Of a stretch of 64,000 bases of DNA, positions 4,855-40,271 are shown in pieces. The DNA lies in the NCBI GenBank assembly GCA_963788655.1, contig CAWBHS010000038.1:1-64000 (forward strand). The letters are read 5' to 3'. Numbering within the stretch: the first letter of the stretch is position 1; every line of letters begins with the position of its first letter. The notes below the pieces were generated by a model. That model had not been told where the DNA came from and searched no databases. It worked only from the letters and a program-made list of their open reading frames with translations. Origin of the DNA: an uncultured Verrucomicrobiae bacterium. Lineage in GTDB: Bacteria; Verrucomicrobiota; Verrucomicrobiia; Limisphaerales; JAFGQR01. The position numbers and the translations under genes are program-made.

Positions 4855-4985
4855 CCGCGACGTTTCAACGCCCCCGCCCGGCAGAACCGCACCCATAAGC
4901 TGGCTACCAAGCGGCCAAAGAATTTGAATCTTGCGGAAATTTGGCACGTCTAGTTAGCATTGACGATGTTGAATCAAAGAACGAT

Positions 4986-5522
4986 ATGACCATTCTGAAA
5001 ACTGTCTCGAGAACCCGCAGGTCGGCGCCCACCGCCGGTTTTACCCTCATTGAAGTCTTGCTGGTGATTGTCATCATCCTCTTGCTGGCCGGGGCGCTGG
5101 TGGTGTTTGTGCTGCCGCAGCAGGAAGGCGCGGAGAAGAACACGACCCGGTTAAAACTAAACAATATCGCCACCGCTCTGGATACCTACCGGCTCAACAT
5201 CGGCCATTATCCCACGGAGGACGAAGGTGGGCTGGAAGCGCTGTTGAAGAAACCGAGTTTTGAGAATGAGCGCCTGGCCGAAAAATGGATGGGACCCTAT
5301 CTCAAACCGGGTACGAAGTTGGAAGACTCCTGGAACAACAAACTTGAATACGAAGTGGTGGACCGGACGCTCGAAACCGAAAACGTGGGTTTGCCGTATC
5401 GGCTGTATTCCATCGGTCCGGACGGCCAACCCGACACCGATGACGACATCAAGTATGCCACGGAAGTCGAAACCGACACCATGGGCACCGGCTCGGCTTC
5501 GGACAGTTCGACGACCAAGTAA
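4986..5522 (+). CDS. gspG: Type II secretion major pseudopilin
   Basis: G|FTLIEVL prepilin motif; ALDTYRLNIGHYPT, WMGPYL, DSWNN, YSIGPDGQPDTDDDI T2SSG signature. Confidence 0.92.
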   Translation: MTILKTVSRTRRSAPTAGFTLIEVLLVIVIILLLAGALVVFVLPQQEGAEKNTTRLKLNNIATALDTYRLNIGHYPTEDEGGLEALLKKPSFENERLAEKWMGPYLKPGTKLEDSWNNKLEYEVVDRTLETENVGLPYRLYSIGPDGQPDTDDDIKYATEVETDTMGTGSASDSSTTK

Positions 5523-5537
5523 TCCCACGGAACTACC

Positions 5538-6272
5538 ATGACCATCGCGACCGGTCTGCGTCGGCAGAGGGCCGGTCAGGGCTTCACCTTAATCGAGCTC
5601 CTGCTGACGTGTTTGCTCCTGCTGCTCCTTTACGGGGCCGTCGCCTTCAGCTTTGACAGCTTGCAGCGGGGTGCCGGACTCCAGGAAGCGGCGCTGCAAA
5701 TGGAAGGCTTGCTGCACTACGCTCGCGCCCAGGCCGCGCAAACCGGACGCCGCGTCCAACTCAGCTTTGAAGAGAAAATCGATGACGATTTTTACGTGGC
5801 CCTTGGCGGGCTTCGCGTGGTGTGGGAACCGGATCCGTTGGAGCAACCCGGCGTCTTCGTGCCGTTGCCGGCTGCTTCGGATTATGTGAAAGGCATTACG
5901 AAAGCGGTCATGGTGGAAAGCGTTCGCCTGTTGGATGTCAATGGCAAGGAGCTGGCGTCCGAATCCGCTTCGGCGGACGACGGGTCGTTCGCCTTCGATG
6001 ATCCGTTCTCGATGTCCACGCCGCCAATCAATTTCTATCCGGACGGCTCCAGTGATTCCGCGAAAATCACCATCACGTCCTGGGACTACGACGATCCCCG
6101 GCGCATGGAGGTCAAGCTGGTGGGCGTCACCGGATCGATTCGACGGAGAATGGTGGACGAGGAGGCGGATGAGATGGGCATGGAAGCGCTGGATGATTCA
6201 ACCAACACCGATTCCCTGGGAACCTCGAGTTCGGGGAATTCAGTCACCCCGATAACTTCATCGCCCCAATAG
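5538..6272 (+). CDS. gspH: GspH/FimT-like minor pseudopilin
   Basis: G|FTLIELL; LHYARAQA; INFYPDGSS motif. Confidence 0.8.
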   Translation: MTIATGLRRQRAGQGFTLIELLLTCLLLLLLYGAVAFSFDSLQRGAGLQEAALQMEGLLHYARAQAAQTGRRVQLSFEEKIDDDFYVALGGLRVVWEPDPLEQPGVFVPLPAASDYVKGITKAVMVESVRLLDVNGKELASESASADDGSFAFDDPFSMSTPPINFYPDGSSDSAKITITSWDYDDPRRMEVKLVGVTGSIRRRMVDEEADEMGMEALDDSTNTDSLGTSSSGNSVTPITSSPQ

Positions 6273-6300
6273 CCACGGGAGCCAGCTCGCGCCCAAGCCT

Positions 6301-6972
6301 ATGAAACTTTCCTTCCTCAGCCGTAACGCTTCACTTGGCGGACCAGTGACGGGACGATTCGGCGAGGTAGGGCAGGCGTCTCGCCGGTCTCGAATAGCCG
6401 CGGGCTTTCCTCACCTTTTCGTGACGCTGAGAAAGTCCGGGCGATGCAACACAACTCCTTGGTTTACTTCCGTTCGGGACCGGCGGGACGCCTGTCCTAC
6501 TGAATCGTTACGGCTCGGCAGCAAACTTTCGTTCCGGTCGCGCGAGCGCGGGGCCGTACTGCTGGAAGTCGTCCTGGCGCTGATTCTTTTTGTGGCCGCT
6601 GCCGCCGTGATCACCGGCGGTATGCATGCTTCCCTGGATTCGGTGGACCGGATGCGGTTGAACACGCACGCCGCCGATCTGGCCATCTCCGTGATCTCGG
6701 AATTGCAACTGGGTATCCGCGGCCTCGATCTGACCGGTCCCGAACCGTTCGAGCCGCCTTACGAAAACTGGACGTGGGAAATTGTGATCACATCCGATGA
6801 GGTCCCGGTAGTTGGGAGTGGATTGGCGATCGAGGAAGAATCGCCGCTAACTCAAGTGGAAGTGATCATTCGGCACCAGGATCCGCCCCTGACGTACCGT
6901 TTGTCGCAGCTTATCCGGCCGGGTGCGGTGAGCCCGCCCACGGAAGAATCGGAACTTGAAACGACGTACTGA
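6301..6972 (+). CDS. gspI: GspI-like minor pseudopilin with an 84-aa leader containing an in-frame repeat
   Basis: RERG|AVLLEVVLAL prepilin-like site at 6553; operon position. Confidence 0.7.
   Translation: MKLSFLSRNASLGGPVTGRFGEVGQASRRSRIAAGFPHLFVTLRKSGRCNTTPWFTSVRDRRDACPTESLRLGSKLSFRSRERGAVLLEVVLALILFVAAAAVITGGMHASLDSVDRMRLNTHAADLAISVISELQLGIRGLDLTGPEPFEPPYENWTWEIVITSDEVPVVGSGLAIEEESPLTQVEVIIRHQDPPLTYRLSQLIRPGAVSPPTEESELETTY
6319..6515. repeat. REPIN/MITE (GTAG-GACAGGCG family) inside the GspI leader
   Basis: Outer IR AGCCGTAACG/CGTTACGGCT; inner GTAGGGCAGGCGTCTCGCC...CGGGACGCCTGTCCTAC; homologous copy at 36957-37184. Confidence 0.85.
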
Positions 6973-8203
6973 CATACGGAACCGCCTCACGTGGTTCAGC
7001 CAAGCACCGGTCCTTGCCGGTGCGTGCAACGTGCTGCCGGCATCCTGCCGGCAGGGCGAACGGGAGAATTGGCAACGAACGTTGTCGGCACGTCGAGCGC
7101 ACTTGGCGCGTCCGTTTCTGCCGGCGGGACGCCGGCAGCACGCTGCTGGCGCCCCCAACGTGCTGCCGGCATCCTGCCGGCAGGGCGAGCGGGAGAATTG
7201 GCAACGAATGGTGTCGGCACGTCGAGCGCACTTGGCGCATCCGTTTCTGCCGGCGAGACGCCGGCAGCACGCTGCTGGCGCCCCCAACGTGCTGCCGGCA
7301 TCCTGCCGGCAGGGCGAACGGGAGGATTGGCAGCGAACGTTGTCGGCCCGTCGAGCGCACTTGGCGCGTCCGTTACTGCCGGCGGGACGCCGGCAGCACG
7401 CTGCGGGCTTTACGTTAATCGAAGTCATTCTTGCCATATTCATTGCGATGGGTCTGCTGTTGGTGGTGCTCTTCTTTTATCATCAAACCACCCGTCTGCG
7501 GACCCAACTGCTCCAGGAAACCGAACGCCTTTCCGCCATTCGCCTGCTGCTTGACCGTCTGACCACCGATCTGCGCTGCGCGCGCACCGATTTCTCGCTG
7601 GGTATGGGGCTGACCGGCGATGCCACCTCGCTCGACTTTGTAAGCACCGGCGTGCCGTCGCTCATCGCCTGGCAGGGCGCGTCGCCCGGTCGTGCCGTTC
7701 GCGCGGAGACCGATTTGCGGCGCATCAGTTACCGGGCCACGACGGGTCTGGTGGATACCAACGTGGTCATCACTGGATTCACGCGGGAGGAACAGCCGCT
7801 CGTTGAACAACGGCAAACCGAAGATATTCTGGCCGACGATCTGGGGGGCTTCTTCCTGGAAGATGAACCGTTGCCGGCCGAGGAACCGTTGACCGACACG
7901 ATTCATTTTGTGCGGTTCCGGTATTGGGATGGTTCGGCCTGGCAAGACTCATGGGATTCCACCGATCTACCGACCGGCGTGGAAGTGAATTTTGGTGGCG
8001 AACCATTGCCGGAGGATCTCACCGCGGACGAATATCCGTACGAATTGTTCCGGCGGGTGATTTATCTCCCCGGCAGCACCGCCAACATTGGCGACGCCTG
8101 GCTGGATGAATTGATGGATGAGATCATGTCCTATGACGATTCAGCCCCCACGGACGAAACGGCCCCCGCCGAGGCCACCACACCAGCGGAGGGAACGCCG
8201 TGA
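6956..8203 (+). CDS. gspJ: GspJ-like minor pseudopilin with a repeat-expanded leader (start codon uncertain)
   Basis: AG|FTLIEVIL at 7409; FRYWDGSAWQDSWD..LPTGVEV C-terminal GspJ-like motif. Confidence 0.75.
   Translation: MKRRTDIRNRLTWFSQAPVLAGACNVLPASCRQGERENWQRTLSARRAHLARPFLPAGRRQHAAGAPNVLPASCRQGERENWQRMVSARRAHLAHPFLPARRRQHAAGAPNVLPASCRQGEREDWQRTLSARRAHLARPLLPAGRRQHAAGFTLIEVILAIFIAMGLLLVVLFFYHQTTRLRTQLLQETERLSAIRLLLDRLTTDLRCARTDFSLGMGLTGDATSLDFVSTGVPSLIAWQGASPGRAVRAETDLRRISYRATTGLVDTNVVITGFTREEQPLVEQRQTEDILADDLGGFFLEDEPLPAEEPLTDTIHFVRFRYWDGSAWQDSWDSTDLPTGVEVNFGGEPLPEDLTADEYPYELFRRVIYLPGSTANIGDAWLDELMDEIMSYDDSAPTDETAPAEATTPAEGTP
7028..7403. repeat. Three near-identical tandem 129-bp REPIN units, in frame in the GspJ leader
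   Basis: Units start at 7028, 7157 and 7286; each bounded by AACGTGCTGCCGGC...GCCGGCAGCACGCT. Confidence 0.95.
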
Positions 8204-9765
8204 ACCGTCCGGCGCCCATCACTACGCTTCGCCGCAAAAAACGGGCGCCGCACTTCGCGGTTGGCACGACGGCGACACTTGTGCAAAACGGGGCGCGGCC
8301 TTCAGGCCGCTTCAAGCCCCGGAAGATACTCAGTGGTTTGCCCAGTAGTGCGACGAAGCGGCGTAAACGCCGCGCTCCGACCGTAATTGACCTCACGTGT
8401 CGCAATAGTGCTGGCTCCGGTTTCGTCCTCATTGCCGTGCTGGTGGTGATCATGCTGACGTCGATGATCGCAATCAGCCTGCTGTTCCGGGTGCGGGCGG
8501 AAGACACCGCCAGCGCTGCCAGTGCCGGGAATGAACAAGCCTGGGCCGCGGCCATGAGTGGCGTGCAGGAAGTGATGCGGTTTATGAAAGCATGTCCGGC
8601 CGGCTCGCTGGACTGGCAGAACAGCCCGGACACGTTTCACGATCACCAAGTGTTCGATGACGGCGCTGACCGCTGGTATTTCACGGTTTTCACGGCGGGC
8701 GATCCGACGGAACTGGAAGAGATTCGTTACGGCCTGACGGATGAAGCCAGCAAACTTAACGTCAATGAAGCCACCGAGGAAGCCCTGGGTAAACTGCCGA
8801 AAATGGAACCGCAACTGGTGCAGGCGCTGCTCGATTTCATCGACCTCGATGATGAGGCGCGCCCCGAAGGTGCCGAACAGGAGTATTACGATGCGCTGCC
8901 GAATCCCTACGTGATTCGCAACGAGCCGCTGGCTTCGCTGGACGAATTGTTGCTGGTGCGCGGTTTCACGCCGTCCCTTGTGTACGGCGAAGACATGAAC
9001 CTCAATTTCCGGTTGGACCCCAATGAAAACGACAGCGACCAATCGTTTCCGCCCGACGACAACAACGGCAAACTGGATTTGGGCTTGCGCGGCTATCTGA
9101 CGGTGGCTTCGTACGACTTGAACGAAGACAGCGACGGTTTCCCCCGGACCAACATCAATGACCCGGACGACCCTTTGCCGGACACGGACCTGCCGGACAC
9201 CACCCTTGCCTACCTCGAGGCGTTGCGCCGGAGTGGGGTGTCGCTCGAACAACCGGCTGACTTGCTGGACGCCAAAGAAAAATTGAAAGATGAGAATGGC
9301 AAAGAAGTCGAAATGGAATCCGGCGTTGATAAAGCCGTGCTGGCGACGGTGCTGGATGTATTGACAACCACCGCCGACACGCGGTTCGATGGGCTCATCA
9401 ACATCAACACGGCCTCGGCGACGGTGCTCCAAACCATACCGGGCATTGACAGCTTGGTGGCGGAGTCCATCCTGTCTGCCCGGCATTATGTGGCGCCGGA
9501 ACGCCGCCAGACCATTGCCTGGCTGTTGCAGGAAGGCGCGGTTTCTGCGGACGTGTTTAAGCAGATTGCGCCTCATCTGACGGCGCGCAGTTATCAATAC
9601 AGTTTTCATGTGATTGGATACGGAGTTCCCTCCGGACGTTATCGAGTGTTTGAAGCAACCGTGGATTTTGGACAGGTCGAACCGGCAATCTCGTATTTGC
9701 GCGAGATCACCCGGCTGGGCTTGCCATTCAAAATCGAAGTGAACCAGGAGGTGACCAGTGGCTAA
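8200..9765 (+). CDS. gspK: Type II secretion minor pseudopilin GspK with a 74-aa leader containing a repeat
   Basis: SG|FVLIAVLVV; DEASKLNVN, ALLDFIDLD, GAEQEYY, ELLLVRG, ININTAS GspK motifs. Confidence 0.9.
   Translation: MNRPAPITTLRRKKRAPHFAVGTTATLVQNGARPSGRFKPRKILSGLPSSATKRRKRRAPTVIDLTCRNSAGSGFVLIAVLVVIMLTSMIAISLLFRVRAEDTASAASAGNEQAWAAAMSGVQEVMRFMKACPAGSLDWQNSPDTFHDHQVFDDGADRWYFTVFTAGDPTELEEIRYGLTDEASKLNVNEATEEALGKLPKMEPQLVQALLDFIDLDDEARPEGAEQEYYDALPNPYVIRNEPLASLDELLLVRGFTPSLVYGEDMNLNFRLDPNENDSDQSFPPDDNNGKLDLGLRGYLTVASYDLNEDSDGFPRTNINDPDDPLPDTDLPDTTLAYLEALRRSGVSLEQPADLLDAKEKLKDENGKEVEMESGVDKAVLATVLDVLTTTADTRFDGLININTASATVLQTIPGIDSLVAESILSARHYVAPERRQTIAWLLQEGAVSADVFKQIAPHLTARSYQYSFHVIGYGVPSGRYRVFEATVDFGQVEPAISYLREITRLGLPFKIEVNQEVTSG
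8221..8387. repeat. REPIN-like element in the GspK leader
   Basis: Inverted pair GGGGCGCGGCCTTCAGGCCGCTTC (8290) / GAAGCGGCGTAAACGCCGCGCTCC (8355). Confidence 0.75.
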
Positions 9766-11527
9766 CTCGGTTCCCACTCCGAAAAACAAGTTGATCAAAC
9801 TGCGTCTGCCGCTACGGCGAAAACGCTCCCGCAGCCGGCCGCGCGGCCAGATCACCGCCATCGACGTCGAAGGCGACATTTTGCGCGTGGTGCAAACCTA
9901 CCAACGTAACGGGCGTACCCGCGTCTCACGCGTCGCAGTGGAACAATTGGATATTAGCGACAAAGCCAGTCTGGCCGATCCGGATATCCTGGGCCGGGCC
10001 ATCGCGAAAGCCCTGGCGCATTTGCGCGTCAAACCGGCGCAAGTGGTGATGGGTGTGCCGCGCGCACTGGTGGTTCTGCGGACGTTATCGTTACCCGCCA
10101 TCGATAACGTTCGTGAAGTAGCTTCTCTGGTGCATTTTCAGATCGCCAAAGATCTGCCGTTCAACATGGACCAGGCGGTGATTGATTTTAAGGTTCTTCG
10201 CTCGGTAACCTCGACCCCCGCCGGAACCAACTCGTCCGGCAGCGAGGCCAAAGATGCCAAGGAATCTGCCGAGACCCAGCCCAAACTGGACGTGCTGGTG
10301 GCCGCCGCCAACCGGGAGGTTATCGGGTTTTACGAGAAAACCGCCGCCGCCGCCGGCTTCAAGCTGATGGCGCTCGGTTTTCGTCCTTACGCCAATGCCC
10401 GTTGCGTGGAAGCCTGTCGGATTGCGGGGCCGGATGAAAGTGTGGCGTTTGTCACGTTGCGGCCGGACGAAGTGTTGGTGGACGTGATTGCCCAGCAGGA
10501 CTTGGTGTTCAGCCGCGGCACCTCGACCAAGCTCGATTACGAAACCGCCGCAACGGCCTACGTGACGGACGGTCAACTGCCGGAGCCGGAATTGCCGGCG
10601 GACCCGGAGCAACTTACGCCGGAAGCCGCAGCCTCCCTCAAGGATTCCGAGAATTCTCTCGTCGAAGCCATTACCATCGAAGTGGTCCGCAGCTTCCACG
10701 GGTTTGGAGGTATGGAAGTCAAGAATCCGGTTTCGCGCCTGGTGCTGGCCGGAGCCACCGGGCACGAGAACGTGGTCGTGGAAGCGCTCCGGAAGCGGCT
10801 CAACATTCCCTGCGAACTCATGGAACCGGCGCGCGCCTTGGACCTCCCCCTCGAAGCGCGCGGTTATGCCTCGGGCGCCATTGCTGCGTTGGGGTTGGGG
10901 CTGAGCATTTTCGATCCGCAAGGATTGCCCTTTGACTTCCTGAATCCCAAGCGACCGGCAGTCCGTCGCAACCTGCGGCGTATCAAGCTCCTTTCCGGAA
11001 TCGCCGCGGCGGCCCTGCTGGCGGTGACGCTAGGCGGGATTGAATTCTATTTGCTGCGCCAAAAGAACCGGGAACGCGACGCCCTGCAAGCCCAGTTGAA
11101 AGTTGAGGAAGGCCGGCACGATTTGTATCGGCGGATGCGCATCCAGGCGCTCGGAATCAAGAACTGGTTGGACGGCGGACAAAGCTGGCTGGATCATTAC
11201 GCCTATCTGAGCAGTGTGTTGCCGTCGTGCCAGGAAGTCTATATTACCGCCTTGAGCATCAGCAGCCGGGGCAGCATTAATTTGGCGGTGCAATCCCGCA
11301 GCGGCGAAGTGTTGGCCAAGCTCGAAAAACAACTCAGCGAGGCCGGTTACCAAGTCCAACCCCTGGCGATCAAGCCGGGGCGGGACAAGTTTGATTATCC
11401 ATTTCGCTCGAGCGTGGAATTGATCATCCCGGACCAACTGAAGATTGATTTGTCCAAACTGAATGTTCCGCCGCGTCCGGAAGACGACGCCTCGTTGGAT
11501 TCCGGGACCAAAGGAGGTGGCTCATGA
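9758..11527 (+). CDS. PilM-like actin-fold domain + TM + PilN-like domain (GspL-like assembly protein)
   Basis: TAIDVEG, VVLRTLSLP, DLPF..DQAVIDF, LVLAG, FDFLNPKR followed by TM helix and periplasmic ferredoxin-like segment. Confidence 0.8.
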   Translation: MANSVPTPKNKLIKLRLPLRRKRSRSRPRGQITAIDVEGDILRVVQTYQRNGRTRVSRVAVEQLDISDKASLADPDILGRAIAKALAHLRVKPAQVVMGVPRALVVLRTLSLPAIDNVREVASLVHFQIAKDLPFNMDQAVIDFKVLRSVTSTPAGTNSSGSEAKDAKESAETQPKLDVLVAAANREVIGFYEKTAAAAGFKLMALGFRPYANARCVEACRIAGPDESVAFVTLRPDEVLVDVIAQQDLVFSRGTSTKLDYETAATAYVTDGQLPEPELPADPEQLTPEAAASLKDSENSLVEAITIEVVRSFHGFGGMEVKNPVSRLVLAGATGHENVVVEALRKRLNIPCELMEPARALDLPLEARGYASGAIAALGLGLSIFDPQGLPFDFLNPKRPAVRRNLRRIKLLSGIAAAALLAVTLGGIEFYLLRQKNRERDALQAQLKVEEGRHDLYRRMRIQALGIKNWLDGGQSWLDHYAYLSSVLPSCQEVYITALSISSRGSINLAVQSRSGEVLAKLEKQLSEAGYQVQPLAIKPGRDKFDYPFRSSVELIIPDQLKIDLSKLNVPPRPEDDASLDSGTKGGGS

Positions 11528-36956: not shown

Positions 36957-37184
36957 GCCGTAGCGCCAGCGTTTGTCGTGCGCCCGGTTTGTCATTACTT
37001 GCGCGAGGAGAGCGACCGTCCAATGCTCACTCAACCGTAGGACAGGCGTCTCGCCTGTCGCTAATCACCGAAGGCCTTCCTCACCCTTTGGTGGCGCTGA
37101 GATCGTTTGAACGACGCAACAAAATCCCATGGATTACTTCCGTCCGCGGCCGGCGGGACGCCTGTCCTACTGCGTTGTTACGGC
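36957..37184. repeat. REPIN/MITE copy homologous to the GspI-leader element
   Basis: GTAGGACAGGCGTCTCGCCTGTC at 37037 to CGGGACGCCTGTCCTAC at 37170; spacer colinear with 6367-6500. Confidence 0.85.
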
Positions 37185-40126: not shown

Positions 40127-40153
40127 CGGGATTGGGCCGCACCCATTTCGCAA

Positions 40154-40271
40154 GTAGGACAGGCGTCTCGCCTGTCCCGAATATCCAAAGACCGTTCCTC
40201 CTCGCGTGATACGCTCCATACCTAATTGAAGGGTGGTTGGCCGTCCGGGACAGCCGGGACAGTTGACCTAC
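40154..40271. repeat. GTAG-GACAGGCG family REP pair between convergent genes
   Basis: GTAGGACAGGCGTCTCGCCTGTCCC ... GGGACAGCCGGGACAGTTGACCTAC. Confidence 0.7.

Follow-up and report, generated by a model that had tools for sequence, protein, structure and literature searches.

How can mobile DNA settle within the genes of a tightly packed operon without altering the finished proteins? The question is raised by a compact pseudopilin operon at 4941–11527 in an uncultured Verrucomicrobiae bacterium, where three consecutive genes, encoding the minor pseudopilins GspI, GspJ and GspK, carry palindromic repeats in the segments for their cleavable leaders. The DNA analysed, 64 kb from the beginning of contig C38 (hereafter the window), belongs to a draft genome of 8.96 Mb, 59.6% GC and 115 contigs. 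A sequence-only reading of the window had proposed that leaders act as a safe haven, in which the host peptidase removes the insert at the protein level. Comparison of the sequences makes it likely, in our judgement, that the repeats in gspK and probably in gspI are translated and removed with the leader, and that the start of gspJ has been relocated. The safe-haven proposal therefore holds up well for gspK and is plausible for gspI, but it is doubtful for gspJ, and leaders carry repeats only at the density of the genome average.

Mobile repeats in the leaders of GspI, GspJ and GspK

The gspI-like (6301–6972), gspJ-like (6956–8203) and gspK-like (8200–9765) genes all lie on the forward strand. 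Measured from their upstream starts (ATG 6301, TTG 6956 and GTG 8200), the leaders are 84, 151 and 74 aa long, with net charges of +12, +21 and +17 and no transmembrane-like segment, which bears out their earlier description as long and basic. All three run into a prepilin signature, a Gly at −1 followed by a stretch of ~20 mainly hydrophobic residues (G/AVLLEVVLALILFVAAAAVI, G/FTLIEVILAIFIAMGLLLVV and G/FVLIAVLVVIMLTSMI, the slash marking the cleavage site). The gspI leader is encoded at 6301–6552, with the mature part beginning AVLLEV at 6553, and the gspK leader at 8200–8421. Glu at +5 is present in GspI and GspJ and absent from GspK, whose mature part starts FVLIAV; GspK usually has no Glu at this position. 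The −1 residue is Ala rather than Gly in GspJ of many relatives and in GspK of several (...RSA/FTVLEV, ...PRA/FVLVAV; loci L033, L052–L054, L056, L057, L061, L066 and others).

Mature GspI, GspJ and GspK are intact, with 63, 59 and 72% identity, respectively, to the same-genus orthologs. GspK matches Pfam T2SSK_1st above the cut-off (52.6 bits) and NF037980 below it (89.6 versus 130 bits), and GspJ matches Pfam T2SSJ below the cut-off (23.2 versus 28 bits). The open reading frame (ORF) at 6301–6972 has no Pfam match and a sub-threshold match to NCBIfam gspI TIGR01707 (20.9 versus a cut-off of 44.35 bits); it occupies the GspI position and aligns with the GspI orthologs of 6 relatives from residue 78–84 on. 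Searched on their own against Pfam and NCBIfam at E up to 1, the leaders gave only two matches, both at chance level and both for the GspJ leader.

We compared the three leader regions with their own genome by blastn, counting matches of 60 nt or more that lay outside the locus. There were 93 for the gspI repeat (family I), 493 for the gspJ repeat (family J) and 25 for the gspK repeat (family K). Family K is represented in the leader by an element of ~155 nt (8261–8415) with 17-nt terminal inverted repeats (TIRs). It is an old copy, ~72–78% identical to the others and with no indel against them. The genome holds 10 TIR pairs of this family spaced 150–199 nt apart, and the element is small, multicopy, TIR-bearing and devoid of an ORF of its own, as is characteristic of a miniature inverted-repeat transposable element (MITE). 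No TIR pair 400–3000 nt apart, and hence no autonomous parent of this MITE, was found.

The family-I element, ~200 nt long, lies at 6319–6515, with similarity to some copies running to ~6523. Its outer inverted ends (6319–6338 and 6496–6515) enclose or overlap an inner inverted pair of 28-nt GTAG-headed hairpins (6367–6394 and 6473–6500), and with these outer ends and this length family I also has the features of a MITE. Further copies or fragments lie in the window at 37037–37184 and ~40153–40186. The element is flanked by a 13-nt direct repeat on the forward strand (6304–6316), with a 12/13 partner at 6523–6535; the two copies are 219 nt (73 codons) apart and double the first leader codons (KLSF). 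Because other family-I copies lack so long a duplication, it is not an ordinary target-site duplication. Neither family I nor family K showed a consistent target-site duplication beyond common TTAG/CTAA-type ends, and both TIR-bearing elements of the locus (8261–8415 and 6319–6515) end in such tetranucleotides.

Family J forms an array at 7027–7408 of three tandem 129-nt units that are 93–96% alike and resemble REPINs, the hairpin doublets of repetitive extragenic palindromic (REP) sequences. Each unit has two inverted 33-nt hairpin arms 63 nt apart; across the genome, these arms outnumber the spacer. The inverted arms of family J, the inverted GTAG-headed arms of family I and 12 above-cut-off matches to the Y1-transposase family Y1_Tnp in the genome, candidates for the RAYT-type transposase of such systems, are the features of REP/REPIN systems. 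The hairpin cores of families I and J share a 12–16-nt motif (6372–6387, 6479–6494, 7120–7135, 7249–7264 and 7378–7393), and thus both may depend on related enzymes. The repeats, which had been taken for three unrelated families, are indeed three different dispersed repeats, but families I and J are linked by this core.

As had been noticed, the repeats stop just short of the processing site: the distance from repeat end to cleavage codon is ~27–35 nt in gspI, 0–5 nt in gspJ, where the −1 Gly codon (7406–7408) closes the last unit, and 6 nt in gspK. The repeats are also predicted to fold strongly as RNA. Against mononucleotide shuffles (n = 100), the minimum free energy was −109.6 kcal/mol (z −7.8) for family I at 6316–6523, −246 kcal/mol (z −10) for the family-J array, −87.5 kcal/mol (z −6.4) for its last unit and −69.8 kcal/mol (z −2.5) for family K, while three control stretches taken from these genes had z-scores of +1.4, +0.4 and −1.1.

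Start codons and reading frames

The boundary between repeat and mature protein contains no place to begin translation, as there is no ATG, GTG or TTG from the end of the repeat to the cleavage site in any of the three genes. The nearest in-frame starts, GTG 6421 in gspI (44-aa leader), TTG 7361 in gspJ (16 aa) and TTG 8338 in gspK (28 aa), are all inside the repeats; further ones are GTG 6346 in gspI (69 aa) and GTG 8281 in gspK (47 aa, again inside the repeat). Whichever canonical start is used, therefore, part of each repeat encodes leader. True starts downstream of the repeats would have made the repeats intergenic, and there are none of the canonical kind; starts within the repeats do exist, however, and that of gspJ has likely been relocated to one of them.

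The repeats keep the gene frame open, as had been claimed. The gene frame has no stop in any of the three leaders; stops in the remaining two forward frames number 6 and 2 for gspI, 1 and 1 for gspJ, and 2 and 4 for gspK. Taking together eight repeat-bearing leaders from four genomes, the gene frame is stop-free in all eight; of the 16 remaining forward frames, about 12 contain stops once overlapping upstream stop codons are set aside.

For the host genome we assembled a set of 77 sites of the G/FTLIE type; gspK falls outside this set because it lacks Glu at +5. The nearest start gives a leader of less than 30 aa at 64 sites, 7 sites have no start, and GspI, at 44 aa, has one of the two longest nearest-start leaders. 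A repeat of at least five copies lies within 300 nt upstream of nine sites. At five of these no canonical start follows the repeat (gspI and gspJ of the window, and three genes on C3 and C110), and at a sixth, on C87, the only start after the repeat is a GTG that would give a 3-aa leader. In these further prepilin-type genes, all on the forward strand (C3, ~1826 and ~5723; C110, ~110520; C87, ~90535), the repeats run to 8–45 nt before the cleavage site and, leaving aside the GTG on C87, the nearest in-repeat starts lie 33–46 aa upstream.

gspK inserts are kept in frame across the order

The case for translation is clearest at the gspJ–gspK junction. In the window GTG 8200 overlaps the gspJ stop (GTGA), and in the same-genus genome G001 the gspK ATG overlaps it likewise (ATGA). 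The gspK gene of G001 has no insert and a leader of 9 aa (MNSRPAQNG/FVLVAV), and the start codons are homologous, with GTGAAC...CCGGCGCCC in the window corresponding to ATGAAC...CGCCCCGCC in G001 (MNRPAP and MNSRPAQ). The overlapping start and the homologous first codons place the ancestral gspK start upstream of the MITE, so that the alignment with an insert-free ortholog, proposed earlier as a check, agrees for gspK with a repeat that entered behind the start. The junctions were compared by local alignment, as global alignment with MAFFT misplaced the upstream flanks. The family-level ortholog search was represented only by the host genome (G000) and G001, and the search of the contig set gave just three distant loci.

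In a wider survey, 401 genomes of the order were searched, 84 had an ortholog at E ≤1e-90 and 33 loci were analysed. In all 33, the gspK frame can be followed upstream without interruption as far as the gspJ stop; a start overlaps that stop in 28, and the distance from the gspJ stop to the cleavage site is 2 mod 3 in 32. Leaders counted from the overlapping start cover a continuous range from 9 to 76 aa in these loci. Where the distance is 110–224 nt, 10 of 10 loci are in frame, and among these ten long inserts only a single pair shows sequence resemblance. With an unconstrained frame, such an outcome would have a probability of at most (1/3)^9, a figure weakened by kinship, though the inserts differ. 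Seven of the ten long leaders were searched for repeats of their own genome (G150, G178 and G225 were left out), and six contained one: the host, G039 (105 matches), G033 (16), G030 (92), G182 (20) and G314 (64). The seventh, G127, has no dispersed repeat of its own genome, only an internal palindrome.

The simplest reading of these data is that gspK is translated by coupling to gspJ. Any insert behind its start would then have to be read, and the survivors would be those that are in frame, free of stops and non-hydrophobic. For gspK, the safe-haven proposal is thus strongly supported by the comparison of loci.

The gspI and gspJ leaders

The gspI start, ATG 6301, is 28 nt after the gspH stop, and relatives have theirs at a similar place, no more than ~30 nt past that stop. 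Of 87 family-I copies, only 14 can be read without a stop in the frame of this gene, and a relative, G030, has a repeat (42 matches) within a 60-aa GspI leader. At the order-wide gspH–gspI junction, 9 of 34 sequences could be analysed, the loci being otherwise too short or the N-terminus unaligned, and the survey is no test of gspI. For this gene, translation and removal of the insert appear plausible. In G001 (locus L031, G001:C60), the DNA from the gspH stop to mature gspI is a 215-nt stretch of 82% GC, with a 60-aa leader from the sole nearby ATG.

The picture at gspJ is different. In the alignment with G001, TTG 6956 is the sole upstream start that remains. Each family-J unit ends ...RRQHAAG, and since the last unit adjoins FTLIEV, translation from TTG 7361 would yield MARPLLPAGRRQHAAG/FTLIEV, an ordinary 16-aa leader derived in full from the repeat. 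More than 100 nt separate gspI from gspJ in seven sequences, those of the window and six relatives, and the gspJ frame is open in five of them; in G039, an open frame runs through a 42-aa leader that contains a repeat with 62 matches. In L065 (G182) and L059 (G257), 357 and 195 nt, respectively, separate the gspI stop from the gspJ cleavage site, and the extra DNA is truly intergenic. For gspJ, the safe-haven proposal appears doubtful.

Repeat density at prepilin-type sites

A test of whether repeats are enriched in leaders over mature regions had been suggested. In the 60 nt before the cleavage sites, repeats make up 5.3% of bases (6 of 77 sites with a repeat), compared with 4.6% in random 300-nt windows (53 of 500), 1.6% in the interiors of long ORFs (15 of 500) and 1.3% in the mature parts of the same genes (2 of 77). 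The mature parts were taken at +100 to +420 nt, as nearer the N-terminus the conserved pilin sequence is itself a multicopy paralog and 33 of 77 sites scored as repeated. Enrichment over the genome average is thus absent, and there is a modest enrichment, ~3–4-fold, over coding interiors and mature regions. By these figures leaders behave like average DNA, not like coding DNA.

Proposed mechanism and rival explanations

We propose that three kinds of small, non-autonomous palindromic repeat, two of them REPIN-like hairpin doublets and one a TIR-type MITE, landed in what may be the only tolerant spots of a tightly packed operon, namely the segments for the cytoplasmic, cleavable leaders of the minor pseudopilins GspI, GspJ and GspK. 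There is little or no spacer between these genes, gspK starting on the gspJ stop and gspI 28 nt after gspH, and therefore an insert falls between start and cleavage site. An insert upstream of the mature-coding part would survive only if the frame were kept. In gspK, and probably in gspI, translation would begin at the ancestral start and read through the whole insert, giving the protein a long N-terminal extension, very basic and non-hydrophobic, which would stay in the cytoplasm and be removed with the leader by prepilin peptidase, leaving the mature protein unchanged. In gspJ, a new TTG start and the complete 16-aa leader, with the residues leading up to the −1 Gly, more likely come from the array itself, whose upstream two and a half units would be untranslated spacer. 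Translation of the long leaders, their membrane topology and their cleavage are predictions from sequence. The available text of PMC4471445 gives prepilin leaders of 6–26 aa, up to ~30 aa for type IVb, and a positive-inside topology. The leaders counted from the upstream starts of GspI, GspJ and GspK exceed this range, while they are hydrophilic and basic, as that account requires, and their basic, non-transmembrane character fits the topology.

Several observations weigh against this proposal. At 74–84 aa, the leaders are ~3 times as long as those in the available part of PMC4471445, so that their processing by the peptidase is an extrapolation. In-frame alternative starts within each repeat make shorter leaders possible in the host genome. 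Long GspI leaders need no repeat, as the 60-aa leader region of the same-genus gspI is no repeat of its own genome (one weak 29-nt match). The gspJ gene of G001 has an ATG directly after the gspI stop and another six codons upstream, and both are gone in the window, one being ATA at 6974 and the other lost by a 3-nt gap. Family-J copies are open in the frame used here in 46 of 77 cases, and 72% of all copy-frames are open; because this repeat is open in most frames, the open frame of gspJ carries little weight. In two of the seven long gspI–gspJ gaps (L059 and L065) the gspJ frame is closed, so that gspJ must start at a TTG or ATG 13–14 codons before the cleavage site, and start relocation does therefore occur at this junction. 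The lack of excess over the genome average belongs here too. The host genome, moreover, is a metagenome-assembled genome (MAG), 86% complete with 5.6% contamination, and the relatives are non-independent samples.

In a rival explanation the repeats are effectively intergenic, with starts moved into them (GTG 6421, TTG 7361, and TTG 8338 or GTG 8281), leaders of 44, 16 and 28–47 aa, and an upstream open stretch that is an accident of GC-rich DNA. The in-frame GTG and TTG codons within all three repeats, the loss of the ancestral gspJ ATGs and the two relatives whose gspJ starts lie behind closed frames speak for such an arrangement, as does an ATG within the G039 repeat that would make a 13-aa GspK leader; the accessible text of PMC3733652 also warns that, owing to misannotation, the majority of REPs assigned to ORF N-termini may in fact lie outside genes. 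We nevertheless consider it rather unlikely, since relocation requires no frame such as that found with an overlapping start in all ten long gspK inserts, the 38-aa GspK leader of G033 offers no alternative start, and family-I copies are seldom open in the frame used by gspI. Even if the starts had moved, a large part of each leader would still be encoded by repeat. It is hardly credible that the inserts have disabled the genes and that the operon, or at least gspI, gspJ and gspK, is decaying without working proteins. The unusual length of the leaders, the lost gspJ ATG starts and at least one paralogous gspK elsewhere in the genome (C60, 33% identity) are compatible with decay, but mature GspI, GspJ and GspK contain neither stops nor frameshifts and can be aligned over their full length with orthologs (59–72% identity), the same layout with intact genes occurs in many genomes of the order, and the MITE copy in gspK is old (~75% identical to its family) and yet carries no frame-breaking indel. 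Equally remote is a non-canonical start just before the cleavage site (ATT in gspK, ATA 6974 in gspJ) or a placement of the repeats by misassembly of the MAG. An in-frame ATT does lie 12 codons before the GspK cleavage site and the draft genome has 115 contigs, but the stretch between repeat and cleavage site in gspI contains no such codon, and the same arrangement occurs in independently assembled genomes. In addition, two contigs of DNA run X1, a soil metagenome (share 0.06), match 8312–8500 and 8510–8660 exactly, the first spanning the junction of MITE and mature gspK, although X1 may be the source sample. The 12 short contigs obtained from X1 contained no empty-site allele and no joint. 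X1 was the one DNA run listed as containing the locus, and the listing gave no RNA run.

Translated inserts that are cut off with the leader could also be one part of a bolder picture, which we consider improbable: an order-wide harbour for selfish palindromic DNA in the leaders of tip pseudopilins, in which translational coupling forces reading, the peptidase performs excision at the protein level, and the hairpins have perhaps been co-opted to limit translation or set mRNA half-life, giving small, matched amounts of GspI, GspJ and GspK relative to GspG. The three minor pseudopilins form the low-abundance tip of the pseudopilus. We speculate that reduced output from a hairpin-laden mRNA might be tolerated, or even useful, for them.

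Relation to known systems

In-frame insertion of MITEs and REPs is established, as the accessible parts of PMC2229807 and PMC10969869 describe for Rickettsia palindromic elements (RPEs), ERIC, YPAL and Correia elements. Prepilin leaders would be a new setting for this known kind of selfish DNA; a full-text literature search gave no report of repeats in prepilin leaders. Like the inserts described here, RPEs are, according to the same sources, small mobile palindromic repeats that are tolerated in frame in conserved protein genes, with several families per genome. The RPE peptide stays on the surface of the finished protein, however, whereas the inserts here occupy a segment whose predicted removal would leave the mature protein as it was; the two sets of repeats belong to unrelated families, and the present host is free-living with a large genome.

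Closer in form are the GTAG/CGTC REPs of Di Nocera, De Gregorio and Rocco (2013, PMC3733652), which in the available text are GTAG-headed hairpins, single or as inverted dimers, that also occur within ORFs. Intragenic GTAG repeats are there most numerous in a verrucomicrobium, many at ORF N-termini. That work takes N-terminal REPs as probably misannotated, whereas the frame conservation found here argues that at least the gspK inserts are read. The words pilin, prepilin and pseudopilin are absent from four supplementary files of that paper. The Yersinia YPAL MITE in the signal peptide of YPO1552 (Delihas 2008, PMC2229807), as far as the accessible portion goes, resembles the present case in placing a MITE-encoded peptide in a cleavable N-terminal signal. 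The signal of YPO1552, however, is of the class I Sec type, in a gene that may be new, and the MITE forms its hydrophobic core; here it is a hydrophilic, cytoplasmic class III leader in conserved genes. Type IVb pilin leaders (~15–30 aa), in the available part of PMC4471445, show that, among leaders ending in Gly, prepilin peptidases tolerate a variety of lengths and sequences. Their sequences are specific to the pilin family, while those described here would be ~3 times longer (74–84 aa, up to 151 aa) and derived from mobile DNA.

Should the long precursors prove to be produced and processed, prepilin peptidases would tolerate leaders several times longer than those described, which bears on how they recognize their substrates. 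There would then be a class of coding sequence in which selfish repeats settle at almost no cost, their product being removed by the host, and the recurrence of such repeats at identical gene boundaries across many lineages would be explained. Annotation is affected as well: N-termini of this kind are commonly cut back as errors by gene callers and curators, and the frame conservation of gspK says that at least some are real. The presence of hairpins in the probably translated 5′ part of genes needed in small amounts makes a regulatory role testable.

Neighbouring genes

The genome encodes a Peptidase_A24 homologue, a candidate prepilin peptidase, on another contig (C24:880–1503), with matches of 36.9 and 29.6 bits, over the cut-off; its presence speaks for the proposed removal of the leaders. 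The operon has the gene order gspG, gspH, gspI, gspJ, gspK, followed by a PilM/GspL-like gene identified by Pfam. The two genes that precede gspI, both on the forward strand, have the ordinary leaders attributed to them, and recomputing gave the same lengths. The gspH-like gene (5538–6272; Pfam GspH, 29.6 bits, above the cut-off) has a 15-aa leader with no repeat. The major pseudopilin gene, gspG-like, lies at 4986–5522 within an ORF at 4941–5522 (Pfam T2SSG, 75.2 bits, above the cut-off); from the nearest in-frame start its leader is 18 aa long, MTILKTVSRTRRSAPTAG/FTLIE, and no repeat reaches it.

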